Shown here: in pieces, positions 11,042 to 26,137 of the stretch
How positions within the stretch are numbered: position 1 is the first letter of the stretch
Layout of the letters: each line of letters begins with the position of its first letter
Assembly (NCBI GenBank): GCA_943787795.1
Contig: CALSNU010000001.1
Span: 960,001-1,024,000 of the forward strand
Source of the DNA: an uncultured bacterium
GTDB lineage: Bacteria > Planctomycetota > UBA1135 > GCA-002686595
DNA: 64,000 bases
Direction: 5' to 3'
The notes under the pieces: model-generated
Told to the model about the DNA's origin: nothing
The model's database searches: none
The model's input: only the letters and a program-made list of their open reading frames with translations
Made by a program: the position numbers and the translations under genes

Positions 11042-14000
11042 TCAGGACAACAGGAACTGCAGGTCGTCCGAGTCGAGATCCGAGAGCGACGACGCCGCCC
11101 CGCCGAGCACCAGCGAGGACAGGTCGCGCTTCTTCTCCTGGAGCTCAAGGACTCGATCCTCGATCGTGTCGCTGGCGATCATCCGGTAGACGTGCACCGG
11201 GTGCTCACGGCCGATGCGGTGGGCGCGGTCGATGGCCTGGGCCTCGACGGCGGGGTTCCACCAGGGGTCGAGCAGGAAGACGTAGTCGGCGGCGGTGAGG
11301 TTGAGGCCCGTCCCGCCGGCCTTGAGGCTGACGAGGAAGAGGGGCACCTCGGGGTCTTGCTGGAAGGCGTTGACCTCGGCCTCGCGCTTGCGCGTGCTGC
11401 CGTCCAGGTAGGAGTAGCGCAGGCCCTTGGCGTCCAGGGCGGCCCGGACGATGCCCAGGAACCCGGTGAACTGCGAGAAGATGAGGGCCTTGTGCCCCTG
11501 GTCCACGAGCTCCTCCACGAGGGGGAGCAGGACGTCCAGTTTGGCGGAGGACTCTCCCTGGCGGGTGGGGTCGATGAGGCCGGGGTGGCACGAGGTCTGC
11601 CGCAGGCGCAGCAGGGCCTTGAGGACCTCGACGCCGCCGCGGGAACCCGCGGCCGCGAAGCTCGAGCGGTAGTGTTGGCGGATCTCGTCGTAGTCCTGGC
11701 GCTGCTTGCCGTCGAGGGTGCACTCGAGGACCTGCTCGGTCTTGGGCGGCAGGTCGTCCAGCACCTCGTCCTTGGTCCGGCGGAGCAGGAACGGCCGCAC
11801 AGCGCGCACCAGGATGTCCCGTGACTCGTCGTCGAGTCTGGCGGAGCGGCCCTTGGCCCGCAGGCGCTGGCCGAGCCGCGTCCCCTCCAGGGTCCCGGGG
11901 TTCAGGAACTCAAGCAGCGAGCCAAGCTCACCGAGGTGGTTCTCCACCGGGGTACCGGAGAGGGCGAGACGCTGGCGGGCCTTCAGGCCGCGTGCCGCCG
12001 CGGCCGTCTGGCTCGCGGCGTTCTTGATCGCCTGGGCCTCATCGAGGACCACGAGGTCGAAGTCGATCTGGGCCAGCTCGGCCTGGTCGCGGCGGAGCGT
12101 GCCGTAGGTGGTGAGCAGGATGTCCGGGGACTCCGCGCTGTCGAGGGCCTCCAGGCGGTTGGCGCCCGTGTAATTCACGACCCCGAGGTCCGGGGCGAAG
12201 CGCTTGGCCTCGGCCCGCCAGTTGAAGATGACCGACCGCGGCGCGATGACGAGGGACGGCCGCCGCTCCTCGGAGAGGCGGGTTCGGTGGAGCAGATAGG
12301 CGAGGATCTGGACCGTCTTACCGAGGCCCATGTCGTCGGCCAGGCAGCCGCCGAGACCCAGGTCGCTCAGCTGCTTGAGCCAGCCGAGGCCCTCGCGCTG
12401 GTAGGGGCGTAGCTCGCCCACGAAGGACTCCGGCTCGTCCATGGGGACGGGGGAGGAGGCCTCGCTCAGGAGGGAGCGCAGGTCGGCGAAGGGCTCGTCC
12501 ATCTCCACCGCGTCCATGGACGCCTGGCGCTCGAGCAGCGCCGAGAGGACCCACCCCTGCTCCTTGCTGAAGCGGACCTTGCCGTCCTCGGTTTGCCCGA
12601 CCTCGAGGAGCTTCCAGCGGGACGCCCAGTCCTTCGGGAGCAGGCCGCGGGACCCGTCGGGCAGGGTGACGAACTTGGCGCCGCGGTCCGCCGCCGCGAG
12701 GAGCGCGGGGAACGGGACCTCTTGCCCCTCGAAGGACACGTGACCGTCCAGGTCGAACCAGTCGATGCCGGACTGCACGGAGGCCGCGGAGCCGGTGCTG
12801 GAGCGCACGCTCTTGCCGTCCGCCTCCACGTCCCAGCCCTCGGAGAGGAGCCGTGCGATCAGGAACTCGATGTCCTTGGCGGGTACCCGGGCCGTGGCGA
12901 TCTCCTCTTCGGGGTCGAGCTTTCGGCTCCCGCCCGCGTCGAGGAAGGTCCGCAGCGCGGCTCGCTCCCCCTCGAGGTCTCGGGAGAAGACCTGGCCGGC
13001 CTCGTCCTCGAGGGACCAGCCGTAGGTGTCCGCGGCCACTCGCCGGGATCCGTACACGAACGTGATGTCGGCCTCGAGCATCTTGGAGCTGCCCTCCTCC
13101 TCTTCGGGCAGCCGCACGACCAGCAGGGGGGTCACCTTCGGACCGGTCTGGATGGAGCCTGGCGCCATGACCTGGTTGCCAAGCTGGGCCAGGGCGCGTC
13201 GCAGCCGCGACTCGCCCCCCGCGGGCGTCTTGAGCTCGCCGCGTTGACGGAGGACCGCGGTCACCGGCGCCGCGGCCATGGGCTCGAGCCGCGACAGGGC
13301 TCCGTTGATGATCAGGTGCCCGTCGGCGGAGACCATGGCGACCTCCGAGAGCTGGAGGTGCTCATCGCCTCGGTCGAGGTGGCCGGTCAGGATCAGGGGC
13401 TCGTCCTCGCCGCCGTCGCGGCCCAGGGAGAGCCGCACCTTCCAGGGGTGATCCAGCTCGTTGCTGAGCGGGGCCGGGAGGCTGCCGCCGTCGGGATCCT
13501 CGGAGCTGGAGGGCGCCAGGAACAGGCGCTCGGTGTCCACGAGGACGCGCATGGCCGCCTCGGTACCCGGCCCGCCCAGGTGCCAGGTCTCGGGTGGAGC
13601 CTCGTAGCCGGTGACCGCACGGCCGCGGCCCCCGGGGCCGTCGAGGAGCGCGACGATCTCGATGTCCTCGCTGCGCGACATGCGCACGTCGTCCCAGTCC
13701 TTTCGGCCGATCTCGAGGGCTGCGCCCCAGGACCCGTCGGCGCGGCGGCGGCGACGGCGGATCGAGATCGAGAATCCTGCGGTGGCCCCCGGAGAGGGGA
13801 TGGTCAGGGCGTATTCGATGCGGAGGAAGGCCTCCCGTTCGAGGGCCTCCCAGGGGCTCGCACCCTCCTCGACGCCCGCAGCCTCGACCACCGCGTCCAG
13901 GAAGTCCCGGCGCTCGCGGTCGTCCTTGCGGACCTCCGTCCGCTCGGCGCGCCAGCCGCCGAGCCCCATCTGGCGGGCGGCGACCACGAGGGCCGCCCAG

Positions 14001-14455
14001 ACGTGGCGGCATCCGCCTTCGATGGCGAAGCGGTCGCAGGAGCACTCAGCGTCCACGAGGCCGCCCCGGCCGACCCGTACGGCGAAGGGCTCGTCCCGGT
14101 CGGTCACCGAGACGGAGAACCCGCGGGTCTCCAGCTGGATCTTGCCCACGAGGTCGCGCCGGGCGAGGCCCTCGCCTCGACCACGCTCGACCCCCTTGAG
14201 ACCCCGCAGCATGGCCTGACGGGTGTCCTGAACGATGGCTCGGAGCTCATCGCTCAGGTTCAGGCTCTCCACGACCTCCGCCAGGGACCCTTCCCCGCCC
14301 TGAGTGTCCCCGCCTTGGGATTCCTCACCCTGGGCTTGGCCCCCCTCGGCTTCGCCGCTCGCCATGTCGGGCGAGGGGGCTGGGTCCAGGGGGGGCTCGT
14401 GCTCGCGTGAGTCCGAGTCGGGGTTCACGGTGGCGTCGCCGGAGTCACTGTTCAT
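11042..14455 (-). CDS. SWIM zinc-finger SNF2-family helicase (paralogue 1)
   Basis: SWIM CSC-x8-CRH; LADDMGLGKT, LDEAQ, LSGTPVEN, SLKAGGTGLNLTAAD, QAIDRAHRIG. Confidence 0.93.
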   Translation of the reverse strand: MNSDSGDATVNPDSDSREHEPPLDPAPSPDMASGEAEGGQAQGEESQGGDTQGGEGSLAEVVESLNLSDELRAIVQDTRQAMLRGLKGVERGRGEGLARRDLVGKIQLETRGFSVSVTDRDEPFAVRVGRGGLVDAECSCDRFAIEGGCRHVWAALVVAARQMGLGGWRAERTEVRKDDRERRDFLDAVVEAAGVEEGASPWEALEREAFLRIEYALTIPSPGATAGFSISIRRRRRRADGSWGAALEIGRKDWDDVRMSRSEDIEIVALLDGPGGRGRAVTGYEAPPETWHLGGPGTEAAMRVLVDTERLFLAPSSSEDPDGGSLPAPLSNELDHPWKVRLSLGRDGGEDEPLILTGHLDRGDEHLQLSEVAMVSADGHLIINGALSRLEPMAAAPVTAVLRQRGELKTPAGGESRLRRALAQLGNQVMAPGSIQTGPKVTPLLVVRLPEEEEGSSKMLEADITFVYGSRRVAADTYGWSLEDEAGQVFSRDLEGERAALRTFLDAGGSRKLDPEEEIATARVPAKDIEFLIARLLSEGWDVEADGKSVRSSTGSAASVQSGIDWFDLDGHVSFEGQEVPFPALLAAADRGAKFVTLPDGSRGLLPKDWASRWKLLEVGQTEDGKVRFSKEQGWVLSALLERQASMDAVEMDEPFADLRSLLSEASSPVPMDEPESFVGELRPYQREGLGWLKQLSDLGLGGCLADDMGLGKTVQILAYLLHRTRLSEERRPSLVIAPRSVIFNWRAEAKRFAPDLGVVNYTGANRLEALDSAESPDILLTTYGTLRRDQAELAQIDFDLVVLDEAQAIKNAASQTAAAARGLKARQRLALSGTPVENHLGELGSLLEFLNPGTLEGTRLGQRLRAKGRSARLDDESRDILVRAVRPFLLRRTKDEVLDDLPPKTEQVLECTLDGKQRQDYDEIRQHYRSSFAAAGSRGGVEVLKALLRLRQTSCHPGLIDPTRQGESSAKLDVLLPLVEELVDQGHKALIFSQFTGFLGIVRAALDAKGLRYSYLDGSTRKREAEVNAFQQDPEVPLFLVSLKAGGTGLNLTAADYVFLLDPWWNPAVEAQAIDRAHRIGREHPVHVYRMIASDTIEDRVLELQEKKRDLSSLVLGGAASSLSDLDSDDLQFLLS

Positions 14456-15909: not shown

Positions 15910-18900
15910 TCAGGTGAGAAGGAACTCGAGGTCGTCGGGGCCAAGGTCGGAGAGGGTCGTGGCGGCTCCCTCCAGGGCGGTCCTCGCGAGCTCGGACTTG
16001 CGGTCCTGGAGCTCGACCACGCGGGCCTCGACCGTGCCCTCGGTGAGGACGCGGTAGACGTGGACCGGCCGGGTCCGACCGATCCTGTGGGCGCGGTCCA
16101 CGGCCTGGGCCTCGGCGGCGGGGTTCCACCAGGGATCCATCAGGAACACATAGTCGGCCGCGGTCAGGTTGAGGCCGGCGCCGCCGGCCTTGAGGCTGAT
16201 GAGGAACACGCAGCCCTCCGCGGCCGTCTGGAAGCGCTCGACCACGGCGCCGCGGTCCCGGGTGGCACCCTCGAGGACGTGGTAGGGGATGCGCGCGGTC
16301 TCGAGCCGAGTCCGGATGAGGCCGAGCAGCCGGGTGAACGAGGAGAAGACGATGGCCTTGCGTCCGCTGGCCACGAGCTCCTCGAGCATCGGCAGCAGGA
16401 GGTCGAGCTTGCCCGAGCTCTCGGCCACGAGGGATGGATCGACGAGCCCGGGGTGGCAGGCGGCCTGACGCAGCCGGGTCAGGGCCGAGAGCACGTGCAC
16501 CTCCACCTCGCCGGGGTTCTCAAGCCGCTCCTTGCGTCGCTGGCCCTTGCTCTTTGAGAGCTCGGCTCGGAAGTACCTGGAGAGGTCCTCGTAGGTGGTG
16601 CGCTGGGCGTCGCCCATGGGGGCGCTCAGGACCTGTTCGACCTTGGGCGGGAGGTCGGGGAGCACCGCGTCCTTCGTGCGACGGAAGAGGAAGGGGCGCA
16701 GGGCCTTGGCCATGAGGTCGCGCCCCTCCTCCGGGAGGGCGTGGCGGCCCCGCGGAGCGCCCAGGCTCGCGAAGGCGGCGTGGGCCCCCAGCATCCCGGG
16801 GTTGAGGAACTCCAGCTGGGACCACAGGTCGCCCAGGTGGTTCTCCATGGGAGTGCCCGAAAGTGCCAGCCGGCGGCGCGCCCGCAGCGCCCGTGCGGCG
16901 AGGGCGGTCTGGCTGCGGCGAGAGCGGATCGCCTGGGCCTCATCGAGGACCAGGACGTCGAGCTCGGTCTCCTCAACCTGGGTCGCGTCTCGGCGCAGGG
17001 TGCCGTAGGTGGTGACCAGGAGGGAGCCAGGCTTGGCCTGGTCGAGCCGCGTCCAGCGGTCGGGGCCCGTGAAGTCCAGGGTGGCGAGGGTCGGGGCGAA
17101 GCGCGCGGCCTCGTGGAGCCAGTTGAACACCAGGGAGCGCGGGGCGACCACCATGGAGTGTCGACCCTCGCTGCTGGAGGTCCGGCTCAGGAGGTAGGCC
17201 AGGACCTGCACGGTCTTGCCGAGGCCCATCTCGTCGGCGAGGCAGCCCGAGAGGCCGACCCGGTCGAGCGACAGCATCCAGCCGAGCCCCTCCCTTTGAT
17301 ACGGACGCAGCTCCCCTCGGAACTCCGGCGGGGGGGCAGCGGCCACGGGGGCCCCGAGGATTCCGAGCTGCTGGCGGAGGCGAGCGAAGGGCTCGTCCAC
17401 CTCGGCCGCCCGTTGCTCCGCGAGCGCGGCCACGGCCCATGCCTGGGAGGTGTCGAAGCGGACGCCCCCCTCGATCTCCTCCCCGAGCGCGGCGAGCTTC
17501 CAGCGCTCGAGCCAGCGTTCGGGCAGCAGCCCACGTGAGCCGTCACCCAGCTCCACGAAGCCGCGCTCGTTTCGCGCGGCGTCGAGGGCGGCCGGGAAGG
17601 GGACCTCCTCGTCTCCGAAGCGGACGGCCCCCACGAGGTCGAACCAGTCCACGCCGGTGCGGACCGAGAGGTTCACCGACCCCAGGCCCCGGATCACCTG
17701 ATCCCGGGCGGTGACTTGCCAGCCTTCATCCACGAGGGTGCCGACCATTCCGAGGAACTTCCCACCGGGGACCGCGGCGGCGGCTCCGGACCCGCTACCC
17801 GCGGCGCGCCCACCGAGCTCACGGAAGCGGAGGATCGCCGCGGCCTCGAACAGGGGTTGGCGGGGGACCGAGCGGCCCTCGAGGCCGGGCACGACCTTCG
17901 TGCGGTCGTCGGGCCGGACCCTCGTCCCCGAGTAGTCGAAGGTGACCTCGCACTCCACGCGCGCTTCACCCCCGGACTCGAGGGGAGCCTCCGCCCGCAA
18001 GCACGGCACCGGGCGCGGCGGCTCGGCGATCTCTGCCAGCCGAGGGCCGACCAGGGTCGCGGTCCCCGCGATGGCGGAGAGGCTCGGGGCCTCCTCTGCG
18101 GGGAGCTCAAGGGGCCCGGTGGAGAGCTCCAGCACGACGGCGGTCGCCTCGCCGGCCGGGAGCTTCAGGAGCTGCCAGGACCCGCGCAGGATGCACAGCC
18201 CGTCATGGGTCACCCTCGAGACCTCCTCGGCGCGGACGCGCTCCTTCTTGCCGAGGACGAGGCTGGCGTGCACGCGCCAGAGCGCGCGGGACTCGTCCTC
18301 GGCCTCGAGCTCGAGCCCGACGACCTCCTGGAGCTGGAGCCTGATGGGTTCTGGGGGCCCGCCGGAATCAGGGGTCACGAGGAGCGGCGCCGCGGCGGCC
18401 GCCGCCTCGAGGAGCGGGCGCGCGACGTCGCGCGTTACCGAGGCCACGGTCACGCCTCGGTGGGTGGGGTCCCTTCGCCACCCCGCGTCGCTCGCTCCGC
18501 TGGCCACGGCAGCGACCGCGGCATGGGCGGGCCCGAGGAGGGAGAGGTCCACGTCCCCTGCGTCCGCGCCGGAGAACGGGATGGGGACCCAGCTGGCCTC
18601 GGGCCCTCCTCGCTGGACCTGACATTCCAGGCGAGCCTCGAGCCCCTGTCGCCGCTCACCGAAGCGCAGCATGTAGCGGACCTCGATCGTGGCGGGGTCG
18701 GGAGCACGCCAGGGATCGAGGCGCCGGCCGCCCCCAGCCTCGATGCGATGGGTCACACGTTCCAGCCGGGTGAGCCAGCGGGGGGCAGAGCGATCCTGGG
18801 CTCTGGGTGCCTCTTCCTCGTCCAGCGCGGCCAGGGTGGCCTCGAGCAGGGCGACCGCGTGTGGGCAGGTGCCCCGGCGGCGAAAGTCCGCGCAGGGGCA

Positions 18901-19149
18901 GCGGGCGGTGCCCGGATCCTCCCAGTGCAGCTCGATCCGGATCGCCTGTCCCTCATCATCACAGACGGCCGCGGCCCCCCGCTTGTCCACCGAGACGGCC
19001 GTCAGGTGGGCGCCCGCGACCATGCGCCGTGCGCGCTCGCGGACCCGCGCCGTCGCATCTCCCCTGAACTGAGCCAGGAATCGACGCGCCTGGGTCTGGA
19101 TGCTGGCCCGGTCCGAGGGGCTGAGGGGGCGGGGATCAGGGGACGGCAT
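15910..19149 (-). CDS. SWIM zinc-finger SNF2-family helicase (paralogue 2)
   Basis: SWIM CPC-x8-CPH; LADEMGLGKT, LDEAQ, LSGTPMEN, QAVDRAHRIG; start placed at MPSPDP. Confidence 0.92.
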   Translation of the reverse strand: MPSPDPRPLSPSDRASIQTQARRFLAQFRGDATARVRERARRMVAGAHLTAVSVDKRGAAAVCDDEGQAIRIELHWEDPGTARCPCADFRRRGTCPHAVALLEATLAALDEEEAPRAQDRSAPRWLTRLERVTHRIEAGGGRRLDPWRAPDPATIEVRYMLRFGERRQGLEARLECQVQRGGPEASWVPIPFSGADAGDVDLSLLGPAHAAVAAVASGASDAGWRRDPTHRGVTVASVTRDVARPLLEAAAAAAPLLVTPDSGGPPEPIRLQLQEVVGLELEAEDESRALWRVHASLVLGKKERVRAEEVSRVTHDGLCILRGSWQLLKLPAGEATAVVLELSTGPLELPAEEAPSLSAIAGTATLVGPRLAEIAEPPRPVPCLRAEAPLESGGEARVECEVTFDYSGTRVRPDDRTKVVPGLEGRSVPRQPLFEAAAILRFRELGGRAAGSGSGAAAAVPGGKFLGMVGTLVDEGWQVTARDQVIRGLGSVNLSVRTGVDWFDLVGAVRFGDEEVPFPAALDAARNERGFVELGDGSRGLLPERWLERWKLAALGEEIEGGVRFDTSQAWAVAALAEQRAAEVDEPFARLRQQLGILGAPVAAAPPPEFRGELRPYQREGLGWMLSLDRVGLSGCLADEMGLGKTVQVLAYLLSRTSSSEGRHSMVVAPRSLVFNWLHEAARFAPTLATLDFTGPDRWTRLDQAKPGSLLVTTYGTLRRDATQVEETELDVLVLDEAQAIRSRRSQTALAARALRARRRLALSGTPMENHLGDLWSQLEFLNPGMLGAHAAFASLGAPRGRHALPEEGRDLMAKALRPFLFRRTKDAVLPDLPPKVEQVLSAPMGDAQRTTYEDLSRYFRAELSKSKGQRRKERLENPGEVEVHVLSALTRLRQAACHPGLVDPSLVAESSGKLDLLLPMLEELVASGRKAIVFSSFTRLLGLIRTRLETARIPYHVLEGATRDRGAVVERFQTAAEGCVFLISLKAGGAGLNLTAADYVFLMDPWWNPAAEAQAVDRAHRIGRTRPVHVYRVLTEGTVEARVVELQDRKSELARTALEGAATTLSDLGPDDLEFLLT

Positions 19150-19252
19150 CTGGCACAGTGTAGACGCAGGGCGGCTCCGTGCCGCGCGCTGGTCGGTCGC
19201 AGCCTTCCGTGTGAGGATCTCGTCCGGACCGGCCAGCAACCCGGGGACCTCG

Positions 19253-19281
19253 TTGCCCGTTGATGGGGCCAGCCCTAGACT
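19253..19281 (+). promoter_or_regulatory. Candidate sigma70-type promoter of the BMC operon
   Basis: TTGCCC-N17-TAGACT about 75 nt upstream of the first BMC-H start. Confidence 0.5.
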
Positions 19282-19355
19282 TATCGTCCGCATTCCACCG
19301 TGGAGGCCCAGGCGCCGCCGCGACCCCATCTCTCGACGAGCCAGGAGCTCTACCC

Positions 19356-19679
19356 ATGGCGAACCCCGCCGCGACCTCGAGGAAGCCGATGGCCCTCGGC
19401 ATGGTCGAAACCAAAGGACTGGTCGGTGCCATCGAGGCTGCCGACGCCATGGTCAAGGCCGCGATGGTCGAGCTCAGCGGACACGAGCGTGTCTCCGCAG
19501 GGCTCGTGACCTTCTTCGTTCAGGGCGAAGTCGGCGCCGTCAAGGCGGCGACTGACGCCGGAGCGGCGGCCGCTCGCCGGGTCGGCGAGCTCGTCAGCGT
19601 GCACGTGATCCCGCGCCCGCACGACCAACTGTGCAAGATCCTGCCGGAGATGCGCCCGACCTCGGGCGCCTCCAGCTGA
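19356..19679 (+). CDS. BMC-H hexameric shell protein (PduA/EutM-like)
   Basis: [54 protein letters not shown]. Confidence 0.96.
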
Positions 19680-19716
19680 TCGAACCCGGGGGCTCTTGCG
19701 GCCCCCCTGAACGATC

Positions 19717-21639
19717 TTGAAGGGCCTCGATCCGGACCTGCGTGCCTTGCAAGAGGTGCGCGACGCTGTCTCCCGCGCGAAAGCCGCGCAGGAGGTGGCG
19801 GCCTCGTGGACGCAGGAGCAGACGGATCGAGTGTGCGCCGCGATGGCGGCGGCCGCCGCGGCCGCGGCCCACGACCTCGCGCGGCTCGCCGTGGACGAGA
19901 CCGGGATCGGGCGCGTCCACTACAAGATCCTGAAGAACCTGTTCGGTTCAGAGGGCGTCTGGGACTCCATCCGCGACGAGCGGACGGTGGGCTTCGTGGA
20001 GCGCGACGACCGCCGCGGCGTGCATGAGGTTGCGACGCCGGTGGGCGTGGTGGCGGGCATCGTCCCGACCACGAACCCGACGTCCACGTCCATGTACAAG
20101 GCGCTGATCTCGGTGAAGGCGCGCAACGCCGTGGTCATCAGCCCGCACCCCCGGGCCAAGCGCTGCATCGCGGAGACCTGCGAGATCATGCGGCGCGCGA
20201 TCGAGCGCGCAGGGGGGCCGCCCGACCTCGTCGTGTGCCTCAATCACCCGACGATCGAGTCCACGGGCGCGCTCATGAAGCACCGCGACGTGGCCGTCAT
20301 CCTCTCCACCGGCGGCAGCGGCCTGGTGCGCGCGGCCTACTCCAGCGGCAAGCCCGCTTACGGCGTGGGGCCCGGGAACGTGCCGTGCTACGTGGACCGC
20401 TCCGCCGATCTCGGCAAGGCGGCTGAGGCGGTGGTGTCCAGCCAGAGCTTCGACAACGCGACGCTGTGCTGCTCCGAGCAGGCGCTGGTGCTCGACCGGC
20501 CGATCGCCCAGCGCTTCCTCGCGGAGATGCAGGCGCGCGGGGCCCACGTCGCCACCGACGCCGAGCGCAAGCGGCTCGAGGCCTTCTGCAACCGCGGCGG
20601 CCAGATGAACGCGGACATCGTCGGCATCGACCCCTGGCGGGTCGCCGATCAGGCGGGCTTCCATGTGCCCCAGTCGACCACGGTCCTGCTCGCCTTCCAA
20701 GACGGCGTCGGGCGAGATCACCCGCTCTCCATCGAGATCCTCTGCCCGCTCCTCTCCGTGCACGTGGTCGACGGCTGGGAAGAGGGCTGCCGGGTCTCGA
20801 AGCAGATGCTTCACTTCGGCGGGCTCGGGCACACCATGAGCCTCCACGCCATGGACCAGGAGGTGCTCGACTCCTTCTTCCTGCAGAAGCCCGCGAGCCG
20901 GATTGTTGCGAACGGGCCCTCCTCGATGGGGGCCGTGGGCTTCTCCACCAACCTGGTCCCGTCCTTCTCCCTGGGCTGCGGTCCGCAGGCGGGGAACATC
21001 ACGAGCGACAACATCTCCGCTCGTCACCTGGTGAATATCAAGCGCGTCGCGTTCCCGACGGGCGACTGGAAGGAGCGTGAGCGCAAGGCCCACGAGCGCG
21101 CGGCCTCCATGACCGGCGCCGGGATGCCTCGCGGGTCGATGATGGATGGAGACCCGGGCCACCGGGGGTCCACCGCGCCGGTCCCGAACCTGCCGGCGGC
21201 CCCCGCGCCGACCCCTCGGGTCCCCGGGGGGACCTCGTTCACGCCCCCTGCTCCCCCTGTCGTGAGCGCTCGTCCGGCGGCCCCCGCACACCGTCCCGCT
21301 CCTCCGGTCGTGAAGGCCCCCGCTGCGCGGCCCGCCGCTTTGGCCCCGGCCGGTCCCGACCCCACGAAGGTCGGCGGCCTCGGCTCGGCGCCGCGCTTCA
21401 CGTCCGATCGACCGGCTGCGGCTGGATCTGCGGCTGGATCTGCGGCTGGAGCCGCCGGCAGAGCGGCCGCGCCCCAGGCCCCGGCAGCGCCTCCGGCCAG
21501 GCCCCAGGCCGAGTCGGGCGTCTCCCTCTCCTCCTCGGAGATCGAGAAGATGCTCGAGAATGCCGGCGCTGGCTGCCCGCTCGGCCCGTGCCAGGGCTGC
21601 CCGCACCACGACGTCCAATCCCACACGTGCACCGCCTGA
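19717..21639 (+). CDS. CoA-acylating aldehyde dehydrogenase (EutE/PduP-like) with long C-terminal extension
   Basis: [50 protein letters not shown]; Pro/Ala-rich linker and Cys-rich tail. Confidence 0.93.
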
Positions 21640-21682
21640 TCGCGGACACGTCTTTCCCTGAACCGAATCTACAAGTCATCCC

Positions 21683-21964
21683 ATGGCTACTGAATCCCAG
21701 ATCGCCCTCGGCCTGATCGAGACCAAGGGTCTCGTCGGCTCCGTCGAGGCCGCTGACGCGATGTGCAAGGCCGCCAAGGTCACGCTCCTCTCCAAGGAGA
21801 AGTCCGGCGCAGGCCTCGTCACCGTGATGGTGCGCGGCGAGGTCGGCGCGGTGAAGGCCGCGACCGAGGCCGGCGCTGCCGCTGCCCGCCGCGTCGGCGA
21901 GCTCGTCAGCGTGCACGTCATCCCGCGTCCGTCCTCGGACCTCGAAGGCTACCTGCCCGAGTAG
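21683..21964 (+). CDS. BMC-H hexameric shell protein
   Basis: [40 protein letters not shown]. Confidence 0.96.
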
Positions 21965-21971
21965 GCCGTAC

Positions 21972-22622
21972 TTGTCCGGAACGCTTCATGCCGTGGAGCT
22001 CCGCGGTGCGGTTCATCTCGACCAGATGCAGCCGCAGCTCACCGCGATCAGCGCCCTGAAGTCGGACGGCTACTTCCCCGTGGAGGGGGATAGCGCGTTC
22101 TGGCTAGAGGTGCGCCCCGGCATCGTGGTGAATCGGCTGCTCGACATCGCGCTCAAGCGCTGCGACGTCACGCCCGGAGCGCTCACCACCGAGCGTCACT
22201 ACGGCAGCCTCGAGGTGCACGGTCCGGACCAGGGCCAGGTCCTCCAGGCGGGCGCCGAGGTGCTCAAGGCGATCGGGCGCAGCTGGGCCGACCAGCCCGC
22301 GCCGGAGGTGCTGGCCGACGAGGTCATCCGCAAGGTCACCTCGCACCACGCCAACCTCCTCAACCAGGCCAGGGCCGGCATGCTGGTCCTCGGGGACGAC
22401 GCCGTCTACACCCTGGAGGTGTCGCCCGCCGTGCACGTGGTGCGCTGCGCCAACGAGGCCGAGAAAGCGGCCCCGATCCGGATCGCGTCCATGCGCACCA
22501 CCGGCGCGGTCGGCCGGCTTCGACTGGCCGGCGGCGACGCCGAGATCGACGAGGCTGTCAAGGCCGTGCGTCGCGCCCTCGAGACCGTCCGAGAGGACCC
22601 CAGCCGGGCGGGAGGGCGCTGA
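21972..22622 (+). CDS. BMC-T, circularly permuted stacking type (CsoS1D/CcmP-like)
   Basis: LDQMQPQL, WLEVRPGI, ERHYGSLEVH..DQGQV, ANEAEKAAPI, GAVGRL. Confidence 0.88.
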   Translation: MSGTLHAVELRGAVHLDQMQPQLTAISALKSDGYFPVEGDSAFWLEVRPGIVVNRLLDIALKRCDVTPGALTTERHYGSLEVHGPDQGQVLQAGAEVLKAIGRSWADQPAPEVLADEVIRKVTSHHANLLNQARAGMLVLGDDAVYTLEVSPAVHVVRCANEAEKAAPIRIASMRTTGAVGRLRLAGGDAEIDEAVKAVRRALETVREDPSRAGGR

Positions 22623-22624
22623 TC

Positions 22625-22948
22625 ATGTTCCTTGGACGCGTCGTCGGGCAGGTCTGGGCTACGCGAGAGGTGGAAGACCTCAGGGGTAAGCGACTGCTGG
22701 TGATCGAGGCCGTCGACGACGCCTCGGACCCTGGTGCGCCCAAGGTCACGCCGGTCATCGCCGTGGACCCGGTCGGCGCGGACGTTGGCGAACACGTCAT
22801 GGTCGCCTTCGGCAAGGCCGCCCGGGTGGCATGCGGCGGCGATGGGGATCTCGCCTACGAGGCCGCCATCGTGGGCATCGTGGATGACGTCCACGCCCCG
22901 GGTGCGCCCGAGTCGTGGAGGCCCGAGTCGGCCAGGGGGCGCGCCTGA
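22625..22948 (+). CDS. BMC-P vertex protein (EutN/CcmL family)
   Basis: MFLGRVVGQVWAT..AVDPVGADVGEHV..GKAAR..AAIVGIVD. Confidence 0.95.
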   Translation: MFLGRVVGQVWATREVEDLRGKRLLVIEAVDDASDPGAPKVTPVIAVDPVGADVGEHVMVAFGKAARVACGGDGDLAYEAAIVGIVDDVHAPGAPESWRPESARGRA

Positions 22949-23259
22949 TGCACGTCGCCACCGTCATCGGCTCTGTCTGGGCCACGAAGAAGGACGCCTC
23001 GCTCGATGGCCTGCGGCTGCTCGTCGTCCGCCCTTACACCACGGACGGCAAGCCGTCCGCCGAGACCATGATCGCTGCCGACCCGATCGGCGCGGGGGAG
23101 GGCGAGCGAGTCCTCGTCGTGCACGGTCGAGCGGCGCGGCACGCCATAGGCAAGGGCCACGACATCGGCTTTCAGACGGCCGTCGTGGGCATCATCGACC
23201 GGATGGATCTCTCCGATGGCCGAACCGTCGGCCCGCACGTCGACTTTGACGAGGGCTGA
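22948..23259 (+). CDS. BMC-P vertex protein (EutN/CcmL family)
   Basis: MHVATVIGSVWATKK..AADPIGAGEGERVLV..AVVGIID; ATG overlaps the previous stop. Confidence 0.95.
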   Translation: MHVATVIGSVWATKKDASLDGLRLLVVRPYTTDGKPSAETMIAADPIGAGEGERVLVVHGRAARHAIGKGHDIGFQTAVVGIIDRMDLSDGRTVGPHVDFDEG

Positions 23260-23331
23260 CCCGGCCCGGCACAGAACAGCGCACAGAACACCCGACTCCA
23301 GGATTCAGCAAACGCACGGGGACGACCCGCC

Positions 23332-23929
23332 ATGCAGAACAACGACCACAATCCGACGCTCTCCGGAGCGGAACTGCAGCCCGCCATCGCGCTGCTCGAG
23401 ACCGCGAGCGTCGCGGCCGGGATCGAGATGACGGACGCGATCCTCTGGGAGTCCGACATCGAACTCCTGTTCGCCACGCCCGTCCAGCCCGGCAAGTACG
23501 TGGTGCTCTTCACCGGAAGCATCGAGGACCTGCGCAGCGCCCTGCGGCGCGGGGCCGAGGTGGCCCGTGGGGACCTCGTCGACCAGCTGCTGATCCCCCA
23601 GGTGGAGGCGGGCGTCTGCGAGGCGCTGCGCCGCCAGGGGCAGCCGCTCCCGGACGGCGAGCTGGACGCGGTCGGGGTGGTGGAGACCACCACCGTCGCC
23701 GCCAGCATCCTCGCCGCCGACATTGCCCTCAAGGAGGCGAGCGTCGACCTGCTCGACCTGCGCGTGGCCAACGGGCTCGGCGGGAAGAGCTTCCTGACGA
23801 TCACCGGCGAGGTGAGCGACGTGCGGAGCTCGGTGCAGGGCCGCCGCTGGCAGCGCGGACTCCTCCGGGCGCCTCGCCCGTCACGTGGTCATCCCGCGTC
23901 CGCACCCCGAGCTCTCGGCGCACCTCTGA
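23332..23929 (+). CDS. BMC-T, PduT-like; apparent +1 frameshift at 23838-23840
   Basis: Two BMC domains (IALLETASVAAG..PGKY; AVGVVETTTVAASILAADIALK..GLGGKSF); removing one G restores RHVVIPRPHPEL-SAHL-stop (198 aa). Confidence 0.88.
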
Positions 23930-23955
23930 TCCCTCGAGGTCGGGCGGAGTGATTC

Positions 23956-24250
23956 ATGGCGTCGAGGAAGAAGCTCGTGACGGAGGCGGACGTGCGGCGC
24001 ATGGCGTCCGGCACGCGCGAGCTTGTCCTTGGCCCCGAACGGATCGCGACCCCCCGCGGCCCTCGACCTCGCCTTCTCCAGGGGCATGAAGGTGATCTAC
24101 GCGGAGGCCGACGCGGCGTCTCCGCTTCCCAGCGATCTGTGGTCGCGCATCAAGTCCAGGGACGGCACCTACGTCGTCCAGGTCGAGAGCGGACGGGCCA
24201 CCGTCACGCGGCTCGGCCCGGCCGGCCCCGAGCCCATCGGCGGAGAGTGA
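23956..24250 (+). CDS. Small BMC-associated protein with EutQ-N-like domain; apparent +1 frameshift at 24050-24055
   Basis: KKLVTEADVRR..ELVLGPERIATP continues as AALDLAFSRGMKVIY after removing one C (97 aa). Confidence 0.7.
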
Positions 24251-24257
24251 ACGAGCT

Positions 24258-24758
24258 ATGACCAAGAGATTCCTGACAGCTGAGGACGTCCGGCGACTCG
24301 GCGGCCCCGAGATCCTCCTCGAGGAGGGGACCGTCGTGACGCCCCAGGCCGCGGAGGCGGCGGCCACCGCGGGCGTCCGCCTCATTGGCCCCGCGGGCGC
24401 TTACGCGCCGCCGCTCCCCGACAGGGGACCGGACGCGGCGCGGGCCAAGGCGACCCTGCCCCACCTCCCCGAGCCCTCGACCACCGATGGCATCGGGCTG
24501 GTGGTGACCGTCGTCGGGCGCAACCGACCCGGCGTCCTCGCCGAGATCACGGCCGCCCTCGCGTCCCACGAGTGCGACGTGGCGGACATCAGCCAGCGCA
24601 ACGTCGGCGGCTACTTCCACACGGTGTTCACCTGCGCCGTGCCCCCCGGACGAGACTTCGGTTCGGTCAAAGACAGCCTCCAGTGCCTCGGCGGGGAGGG
24701 CGACTACGTCGTCCGCGTCATGCACGAGAGCGTCTTCCGCTTCATGCACCGCGTCTAG
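24258..24758 (+). CDS. EutQ-N-like domain fused to UPF0237-type ACT domain
   Basis: [27 protein letters not shown]; then [36 protein letters not shown]. Confidence 0.85.
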
Positions 24759-24771
24759 CGGAGGACCCACG

Positions 24772-26137
24772 ATGCCGTTCACCGACCACGAGATCCTCGA
24801 GACCGTCCGGATGTTCGAGCTGGAGACGTTCGACATTCGAACGACCACGCTCGGCATCAACCTGCTCGACTGCGCTGACCCGGACCTGGAGTCGTCGTGC
24901 GAGAAGGTCTACGCCAAGATCGTGCACCACGGTCGCAACCTGGTGGAGACGGCGGGCAGCATCGAGTCGGACCTGGGCATCCCGATCATCAACAAGCGGG
25001 TCGCCACCACGCCGATCGCGCTGGTCGCGGCGGCCTCCGGCTCGAAGGACCTCGTCCCCTTCGCGCGCGCCATGGACGCGGCCGCCGAGGAGATCGGGAT
25101 CGACTACATCGGCGGCTACACCGCGTACGTGCACAAGGGCTACTCCAACGCCGACCACGCCCTGCTGGAGTCCATCCCCGAGGCGCTCGCGTCCACCGCG
25201 CGCGTCTGCTCCTCGGTCTCCCTCGCGACGACCAAGGCCGGGATCAACATGGACGCGGTCTCGCACTTCTCGAAAGTGGTCCTCGACACTGCGCGTCTCA
25301 CCGCGAGCGAGGGCGGCCTGGGCTGCGCGAAGCTGGTCTGCTTCTCCAACCCGGTGGAGGACAACCCGTTCATCGCCGGCGCCCACATCGGCATCGGCGA
25401 GCCGGAGACGGTCCTCAACGTCGGGGTGTCCGGCCCCGGCGTGGTGCGCTCGGCCCTCGAGCGCCTCGGCCCCGACGCCGACCTGCTGGCGGTCGCCGAG
25501 ACCATCAAGCGCACGGCCTTCAAGATCACCCGCATGGGCGAGCTCGTGGGCCGCGAGGCCGCGCGCCGGCTGGGGACCGTGTTCGGCATCGTCGACGTGT
25601 CCCTCGCGCCGACTCCCGCGGTGGGGGACTCGGTGGCGGACATCCTGGAGCTCATCGGGGTGGAGCGGACCGGCGCGCCGGGCACCACCGCCGCCCTCGC
25701 GCTGCTCACCGACGCCGTCAAGAAGGGGGGGGCCATGGCCTCGTCCAGCGTCGGCGGCCTCTCCGGGGCGTTCATCCCGGTGTCCGAGGACGCGGGGATG
25801 ATCCAGGGCCGTGGCGGACGGCGCCCTGAGCCTCGCGAAGCTCGAGGCCATGACGACCGTGTGCTCGGTCGGCCTCGACATGATCGCGGTCCCCGGGGAC
25901 ACCAGCCAGGCGACGCTCGCGGGCATCATCGCGGATGAGATGGCGATCGGCATGGTCAACCAGAAGACCACCGCCGTGCGCGCGATCCCGGTGCCCGGCA
26001 AGAGGCCCGGGGAGACCCACGACTGGGGCGGGCTGCTCGGCACCGCGATCGTCCAGGACCCCGGGAGGTTCGGCAGCGAGGTCTTCCACTCCCGCGGCGG
26101 GCGGATCCCCGCGCCGCTCCAGAGCTATCGGAACTGA
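24772..26137 (+). CDS. DUF711/UPF0210 PFL-fold family protein; apparent +1 frameshift at 25806-25808
   Basis: [66 protein letters not shown], then [15 protein letters not shown] in the next frame (454 aa joined). Confidence 0.92.

Follow-up and report, generated by a model that had tools for sequence, protein, structure and literature searches.

A GlyXS/GlyXL (ACT/DUF711) module at a MIC3-type microcompartment locus of an uncultured planctomycete

Gene content and type of the locus

The window analysed here is a stretch of 64,000 nucleotides from the genome of an uncultured planctomycete (GenBank assembly GCA_943787795.1, contig CALSNU010000001.1, positions 960,001 to 1,024,000), which is 85% complete and whose host is marine, judged by the sequencing runs containing it. 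Ten genes between positions 19356 and 26137 lie on the plus strand with intergenic gaps of −1 to 72 bases (Table 1). Pfam and NCBIfam models confirmed the content given in an original prediction made from the letters alone: a packed same-strand operon of bacterial microcompartment (BMC) shell genes, comprising two hexamers (BMC-H), a permuted BMC-T, a PduT-like BMC-T and two pentamers (BMC-P), together with an acylating aldehyde dehydrogenase and then genes for an ACT protein and a DUF711 protein. The ACT protein carries an N-terminal module resembling that of EutQ, here called the tag. The prediction had further proposed that DUF711 may be the core aldehyde enzyme of a BMC type that it did not recognise. 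Our analysis instead indicates that the locus is the catalogued MIC3 metabolosome of planctomycetes, not a new type, and that DUF711 is an accessory rather than its defining core enzyme.

Assignment to MIC3 follows the catalogue of Sutter et al. 2021 (PMC8217296), whose Supplementary Data 2 describes a planctomycete metabolosome whose dehydrogenase has a flexible linker and four cysteines at its C-terminal end. Its main locus holds two BMC-H, two BMC-P and one each of BMC-Ts and CcmP-like BMC-Tdp; its satellite combines a pentamer triplet with a class II aldolase (PF00596). The present genome shares the host lineage, the main-locus shell set, the triplet-plus-PF00596 satellite, the total of five pentamers and the dehydrogenase tail, which here comprises a Pro/Ala linker, a short amphipathic-looking helix and four cysteines. 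A new BMC type was rejected because lineage, shell set, dehydrogenase tail and satellite all match MIC3. Unlike the catalogued description, however, this genome gave no match to the PF04909 amidohydrolase of the catalogued main locus in a tblastn search with a relative's protein, at 85% completeness, and the locus is therefore filed as a MIC3 variant. The amidohydrolase is variable in relatives, lying near the operon in six family loci, so that its status as a constant component is not supported. Moreover, the catalogue text for MIC3 names neither DUF711 nor a tagged DeoC/RpiB satellite and states that no encapsulation peptides were detected, and its HMM table holds an ACT model named for ACI/MIC3 and does not list PF05167, the DUF711 family; relatives with three pentamers and without the ACT/DUF711 module also exist. 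A glycyl-radical metabolosome (GRM) was set aside, since no glycyl radical enzyme or activating enzyme was among the operon's Pfam matches and DUF711 is reported to be non-radical. The four-cysteine tail is missing from the dehydrogenases examined in families f7, f6, f66 and f28 (planctomycete families are given as f numbers, loci as L numbers and genomes as G numbers), and the pore-region stretch inspected in the PduT-like BMC-Ts holds no cysteine.

The metabolosome is encoded at three sites, the main operon and two satellites. The first satellite is on the operon's own contig, about 78 kb upstream, and holds three pentamers with the class II aldolase; a SurA-like gene precedes it, and similar upstream genes are seen at other families' satellites. 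The second, on contig C4 with no shell gene near it there, pairs RpiB with DeoC. RpiB has an N-terminal EutQ-like module, the sole strong match outside the operon to a profile of the ACT N-terminal module (alignment A2), and the DeoC that follows it has its own helix-plus-cysteine extension. DeoC, RpiB and class II aldolase are each single-copy in this genome. The original prediction had suggested looking for aldolase satellite genes in the rest of the genome, and had held that a conventional signature enzyme with a targeting signal elsewhere would tell against DUF711 as the core; both were found, in a class II aldolase beside shell genes and in DeoC and RpiB with targeting-like extensions.

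DeoC and RpiB are the signature pair of the SPU metabolosome, in which DeoC yields acetaldehyde for the dehydrogenase (PMC8217296), and the best model of the present dehydrogenase (TIGR02518) is that of an acetylating acetaldehyde dehydrogenase. As in SPU and FRAG5/FRAG8, which have DeoC (PF01791) and RpiB (PF02502) in the same catalogue, N-terminally extended DeoC and RpiB track the shell and nucleoside genes lie nearby, a nucleoside phosphorylase and a nucleoside transporter standing about 5 kb upstream of the second satellite. Unlike in SPU, the DeoC and RpiB genes here occupy a satellite without shell genes on a separate contig, and the genome has a class II aldolase and the ACT/DUF711 pair besides. 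A close DeoC (59–77% identity) occurred in 18/18 dehydrogenase-positive genomes of the order, and a distant one or none in the 11/11 without the dehydrogenase. RpiB adjoins DeoC in 20 of 31 loci, 15 of these 20 having the EutQ-like module on it. Families f65, f27 and f36 have both genes within the pentamer gene cluster, one of these clusters having a nucleoside phosphorylase after them. Likeness to an encapsulation peptide was judged by comparison with E. coli EutE, whose hydrophobic moment the DeoC helix equals (0.43) in an uncontrolled comparison. In locus L231 (G039) RpiB and DeoC stand in one open frame behind a EutQ-like module, an apparent fusion. Small cysteine-rich motifs after a helix are seen both in the dehydrogenase tail (window 21560–21639) and in DeoC extensions (the N termini in L234, L235 and L237).

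The original prediction had noted that the window holds no phosphotransacylase, kinase or alcohol dehydrogenase. No alcohol dehydrogenase is among the operon's Pfam matches, and searches of the whole genome, at 85% completeness, gave neither a phosphotransacylase nor an acetate kinase; acetate kinase is present in two of four relatives. In two of four f28 loci a family III CoA-transferase gene lies directly upstream of the operon (L109 15130–16365, L256 3562–4644), and this enzyme is a candidate for CoA recycling there.

Table 1. Genes of the main operon (window coordinates) and the two satellite loci (contig coordinates).
Feature	Position	Strand	Model or remark
BMC-H shell hexamer 1	19356..19679	+	PF00936, 94.7 bits
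Acylating aldehyde dehydrogenase	19717..21639	+	PF00171; best model TIGR02518, 519 bits, below cut-off 620
BMC-H shell hexamer 2	21683..21964	+	PF00936, 96.7 bits
Permuted BMC-T (Tdp, CcmP-like)	21972..22622	+	NF053796 CcmP 186 bits, below cut-off; weak PF00936
BMC-P pentamer 1 of module-linked pair	22625..22948	+	PF03319
BMC-P pentamer 2 of module-linked pair	22948..23259	+	PF03319
PduT-like BMC-Ts	23332..23929	+	TIGR02526 100 bits; one-base frameshift ~23838
Small stand-alone protein, EutQ-N-like module	23956..24250	+	profile A2 matches; frameshift ~24050
GlyXS-type ACT protein, N-terminal EutQ-N-like module and Pro-rich linker	24258..24758	+	PF13740 (ACT_6), NF001220
DUF711 / UPF0210 / GlyXL	24772..26137	+	PF05167 in two pieces; frameshift ~25806
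Satellite 1: three pentamers and class II aldolase	contig C1 ~900,800-902,500 (L012 8793-10498)	-	this genome
Satellite 2: RpiB and DeoC	contig C4 ~776,100-777,900 (L216 6084-7940)	-	this genome

Distribution of the ACT/DUF711 module

We compared 150 genomes of the class, 84 of them from the window's own family (the class sample). DUF711 was present in 77/84 own-family genomes and 0/66 of the others. The dehydrogenase occurred in 89 genomes, 13 of which were without DUF711; all 13 kept the shell and had exactly three pentamers and the aldolase. Five pentamers were found in five of six DUF711-positive genomes, and triplet, aldolase and extra pentamers were all absent in 4/4 shell-less genomes. 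Ten DUF711-less operons that we fetched were all without both main-locus pentamers and the ACT gene. Likewise, of the 77 DUF711-positive genomes in the class sample, 76 have pentamer 2 and 75 the ACT fusion, with 0/73 of the remaining genomes having either. DUF711 is thus accessory, because shell, dehydrogenase and aldolase persist without it in 13/13 genomes. Of the proposed core role, the tie to the organelle locus and to an aldehyde, the predicted product glyoxylate, stands; the rank of core enzyme does not.

In the tree of the dehydrogenase, the carriers enclose a single clade that holds the five family members without the module, and the module therefore appears to have been lost jointly once. 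The presence of the module changes state about four times (~4) on this tree, with at least three changes forced. The small gene at 23956–24250 is intact but variable among relatives and is retained in three of ten DUF711-less operons. The original prediction had left room for a linkage confined to this genome; instead, gene order is conserved in 14 of 20 fetched family loci, and the linkage recurs in other planctomycete families and in Myxococcota. Among the 76 family genomes with both genes, DUF711 lies within 6.5 kb of the dehydrogenase in 45 and within 10.5 kb in another five.

At the level of the phylum DUF711 occurred in 55/400 genomes. Its proximity to shell genes in other genomes, also put forward for checking by the original prediction, was found in 16 of 40 loci from other planctomycete classes (40 of 42 fetched), a further two having the tagged ACT protein only, and in one of 80 loci from other phyla (on the stretches fetched, among the matches listed). 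DUF711 shared the operon with the dehydrogenase in 10/10 f66 loci and 3/4 f28 loci, and in f66, f28 and f60 the pentamers again come with a class II aldolase. In f66 (L097, L100, L108, L111, L113, L116) a Glu/Leu/Phe/Val dehydrogenase gene stands upstream of the aldehyde dehydrogenase and shares its strand, the first BMC-H being missing there; this enzyme could supply amino groups for glyoxylate. In f11 (L098, L102, L131, L132) two ACT-like matches precede DUF711 and no shell genes adjoin.

The single locus from another phylum, in Myxococcales, has four pentamers, a tagged ACT protein and DUF711. Among the Myxococcota genomes sampled DUF711 was present in 17/201, and of 15 other full-length myxobacterial copies, 14 have an ACT protein with the EutQ-like module, the remaining one having a different helical extension. 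A pentamer gene adjoins DUF711 in 13/15, and 14/15 of these genomes have 6–7 pentamers compared with 0–3 in 20/20 without DUF711, the latter being the first 20 listed of 184 such genomes. The main loci are HO-like, and HO-type loci occur both with and without the module. Compared with the HO type as catalogued (PMC8217296), the HO-like myxobacterial loci (H, P, dehydrogenase, Ts and Tdp; P, P and aldolase) host the same tagged pair; the myxobacterial module, however, comes with four extra pentamers, that of planctomycetes with two. Over 91 compared columns, shared ancestry of the extra pentamers of the two phyla was neither shown nor excluded. An ACT protein whose N-terminal domain is locus-specific is also described for the FRAG4 type in the same catalogue.

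The tagged ACT protein and DUF711

The ACT protein is 166 residues long including its N-terminal module, not about 90, and the module matches residues 1–50 of E. coli EutQ with a probability of 94.7 and a pairwise E value of 6e-8 over 47 columns. In Salmonella EutQ, helices 1 and 2 are reported to bind the shell and residues 1–99 to target a reporter to the organelle (PMC12487888). The homology therefore covers the part reported there as shell-binding, but the cargo-binding helices 3 and 4 and the cupin domain of EutQ are unmatched and an ACT domain follows instead. The module was absent on 71/71 background ACT partners (among the matches listed) and in 5/5 genomes lacking shell or dehydrogenase, DUF711 being present in one of them. 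The Atlas clusters closest to the ACT fusion are mostly from Planctomycetota, only ACT clusters being returned. At the level of sequence, conserved linkage, the EutQ-like tag and co-occurrence with extra pentamers in two phyla indicate that the ACT and DUF711 proteins belong to the organelle locus.

ACT/DUF711 pairs have been named GlyXS/GlyXL by Price et al. 2026 (PMC13759103), whose fitness data indicate that they support glycine synthesis. In that account the pair is common, its genes mostly stand side by side in many genera, and it rescues an E. coli glyA mutant aerobically with no shell involved; its GlyXL has no radical catalytic residues and is predicted to form glyoxylate in a pocket made up of three arginines and one glutamate (R22, R75, E339, R403). 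The PFL/RNR-like fold that the original prediction had pointed out therefore does not imply radical chemistry, and we rejected DUF711 as a radical PFL-like enzyme from the literature (PMC13759103, PMC4390871). The prediction's association of DUF711 with an aldehyde fared better, the published genetics linking the protein to predicted glyoxylate. Families, gene order and the four predicted pocket residues are alike in the published pair and the present one. The corresponding R23, R76, E339 and R403, equated with the published residues by position and not through an aligned B. breve protein, were invariant in 80/80 aligned sequences, tagged or not, and the pocket R, R, E and R are present in the window's DUF711 pieces. 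In contrast to the published pair, GlyXS here has a 75-residue extension, and this genome also has glyA.

The intact DUF711 of a relative matches PDB 2HA9 at an E value of 1e-155. GlyXL and GlyXS have been solved separately (2HA9, 1ZPV), and sequence searches found no complex of the two. We co-folded the ACT domain and DUF711 of a same-genus relative, obtaining a score of 0.53, the highest of three controls scoring 0.00, with runs agreeing in at least 91% of contacts and a partner pLDDT of at least 83. The mark so attained is reached by 116/157 solved complexes and 2/215 mismatches, and at scores of 0.60 or below by 18/157 and both mismatches, so that the model lends weak support to an ACT–DUF711 pairing.

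Three genes of the operon are interrupted by one-base frameshifts (~23838, ~24050 and ~25806), each an extra base in a run of G or C. The extra base is absent at all three sites from contigs of run X3, from another study, and is also absent in run X15 at 24050 and in run X16 at 23838; at 24050 and 25806 run X1 reads as the window does, and the window may derive from that run. Relatives' copies of these genes are intact, DUF711 being 454–455 residues long, and other genes in the window's assembly are likewise split across frames. Because relatives are intact and other runs are without the extra bases, the three frameshifts look like assembly errors, and true pseudogenes are unlikely. RNA runs X15 and X16 gave scattered contigs over the operon, one each crossing the ACT–DUF711 junction, and such contigs cannot show transcription or co-transcription. 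Promoter and terminator scans of the operon returned 0 and 0 sites and are uninformative given the GC content. Immediately upstream of the operon, two SNF2-type helicase genes (~1,140 residues) stand on the minus strand either side of an amino-acid permease gene (window 11042–14455, judged from its translation, and 15910–19329, confirmed by Pfam). Downstream of DUF711 or the operon in family f1 (L044, L047, L050, L051, L053, L057) a receiver-plus-HD-domain gene recurs, often with an MFS transporter; the transporter is also found downstream of module-less operons.

Proposed role and alternatives

We favour, with somewhat better than even confidence, the explanation that GlyXS/GlyXL is an accessory module that handles glyoxylate, brings vertices of its own and is added to a MIC3 shell fed by aldolases. 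The add-on status of DUF711, the third locus with DeoC and RpiB and the pentamer counts are results tested in this analysis. In the proposed mechanism, DeoC, RpiB and the class II aldolase would be encapsulated, tagged DeoC cleaving deoxyribose 5-phosphate to yield glyceraldehyde 3-phosphate as well as acetaldehyde, and the class II aldolase, with RpiB, cleaving another sugar phosphate to a short aldehyde. The acylating dehydrogenase would capture these aldehydes as acyl-CoA, and the organelle thus probably burns sugar-derived aldehydes. GlyXS may bind the shell through its EutQ-like module and bind and regulate GlyXL through its ACT domain. As DUF711 carries no extension of its own, GlyXL would need a carrier, and GlyXS is the proposed means by which it reaches the organelle, where it may form glyoxylate from an anionic substrate. 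The two extra pentamers would be vertices belonging to the module. Glyoxylate would most likely exit and be transaminated to glycine, the alternative being oxidation by the dehydrogenase. Malate synthase was discarded as a sink for glyoxylate and acetyl-CoA, neither it nor isocitrate lyase having been found in this genome, G126 or G044; both enzymes are present in G023 and G467.

Several observations weigh against this explanation. DUF711 does not always adjoin the operon: the remainder of the 76 family genomes have it farther from the dehydrogenase on the same contig (4) or on another contig (22), it stands without ACT or shell genes in 6/20 fetched family loci, 22 of the 40 loci from other planctomycete classes have neither shell genes nor tag, and 79/80 background loci (other phyla, among the matches listed) are without shell genes. 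Nor do the pentamers follow it everywhere, since in three loci of f27 and f65 the tagged pair comes after the BMC-T without a pentamer pair between, and the pentamers of one myxobacterial carrier number only three. Kin are not independent, and with about four changes on the tree the co-occurrence counts amount to few events, not 150. The separate clade of BMC-linked DUF711 proteins that the original prediction had suggested looking for was not found: 36/40 tagged copies fall in one group (support 90) with five changes, in quick trees of which the clade tree is without two very distant f11 rows and has 44 of 79 background sequences. Pocket residues of tagged DUF711 are those of its shell-less relatives, and the glyoxylate product is itself a prediction (PMC13759103). 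On the side of the aldehyde supply, the DeoC helix pattern, found in 14/22 close DeoCs, 0/9 distant ones and 10/1500 random stretches, was written after the sequences were seen. The DeoC step is not universal for the shell type, because a search for tagged RpiB gave none in f66 and f28 (5/5) and their DeoC is distant. Finally, CoA recycling is unexplained, as neither a phosphotransacylase nor an acetate kinase was found in the genome.

GlyXS/GlyXL might instead be tied to the organelle and yet act from outside, either attached to its outer face or a vertex or cytoplasmic and co-regulated, and converting an exiting product or sensing glycine. This is unlikely, although it would account for an untagged GlyXL whose gene is often far from the operon while the ACT fusion stays, and for its function in E. 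coli, where no shell is needed (PMC13759103); extra pentamers that track the module fit a docking role as well as a gate. However, the homologous region of EutQ bridges the shell and internal cargo (PMC12487888), and the same module is found on RpiB, a listed SPU enzyme.

We consider it quite improbable that GlyXL is the true signature enzyme, making glyoxylate (alone or with a second aldehyde) inside the shell for consumption by the dehydrogenase, with the aldolases secondary. GlyXL does share the main operon with the dehydrogenase in 50/76 family genomes, and its product is predicted to be an aldehyde (PMC13759103). GlyXL has its best claim to being a major input in f66 and f28, where it shares the operon in the 10/10 and 3/4 loci given above and tagged RpiB was not found, though the class II aldolase is present there with the pentamers, as it is in f60. 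Against a signature role stand the 13 DUF711-less genomes that keep dehydrogenase, three pentamers and aldolase, the nesting of the module-less clade's dehydrogenase among carriers and the existence of HO-type loci with and without the module. Hitchhiking of an ordinary glyXS–glyXL operon behind shell genes, inherited without functional link, is very improbable: the pair's usual adjacency in many genera (PMC13759103), its unchanged pocket and the few independent events among related genomes would fit, but a module of microcompartment type has been acquired by the ACT protein, five other planctomycete families and, with a different type of shell, Myxococcota show the link again, and DUF711 was not found in the 60 class-sample genomes without dehydrogenase and pentamer 2.

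In the catalogue (PMC8217296) MIC3, HO and several FRAG types are listed without an assigned substrate and the surplus of pentamer genes is called unexplained. Our literature search, with subscription journals outside it, found no paper linking DUF711/GlyXL to microcompartments, though catalogue locus diagrams may show DUF711, none joining microcompartment, glyoxylate, ACT domain and BMC-P, and on MIC3 the catalogue and its preprint only; the main text of Price et al. 2026 does not mention microcompartments. The present analysis assembles candidate inputs for MIC3 (DeoC, RpiB, class II aldolase and GlyXL) and shows pentamer number rising with one cargo module in two phyla, from three to five and from three to seven. 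For GlyXL, a widespread enzyme of ribonucleotide-reductase fold, the organelle context narrows the search for a substrate, and a 50-residue shell-binding tag, if true, would be useful for loading engineered shells. More tentatively, GlyXS/GlyXL and its dedicated pentamers might be a portable plug-in that turns MIC3, HO and FRAG5-like shells into glyoxylate-handling organelles, the extra pentamers acting as cargo-specific docking or gating vertices and GlyXL as a non-radical lyase feeding the dehydrogenase. If so, this would be the first function for surplus BMC-P paralogues, and the substrate of GlyXL would be one to seek among the organelle's sugar-phosphate fragments.

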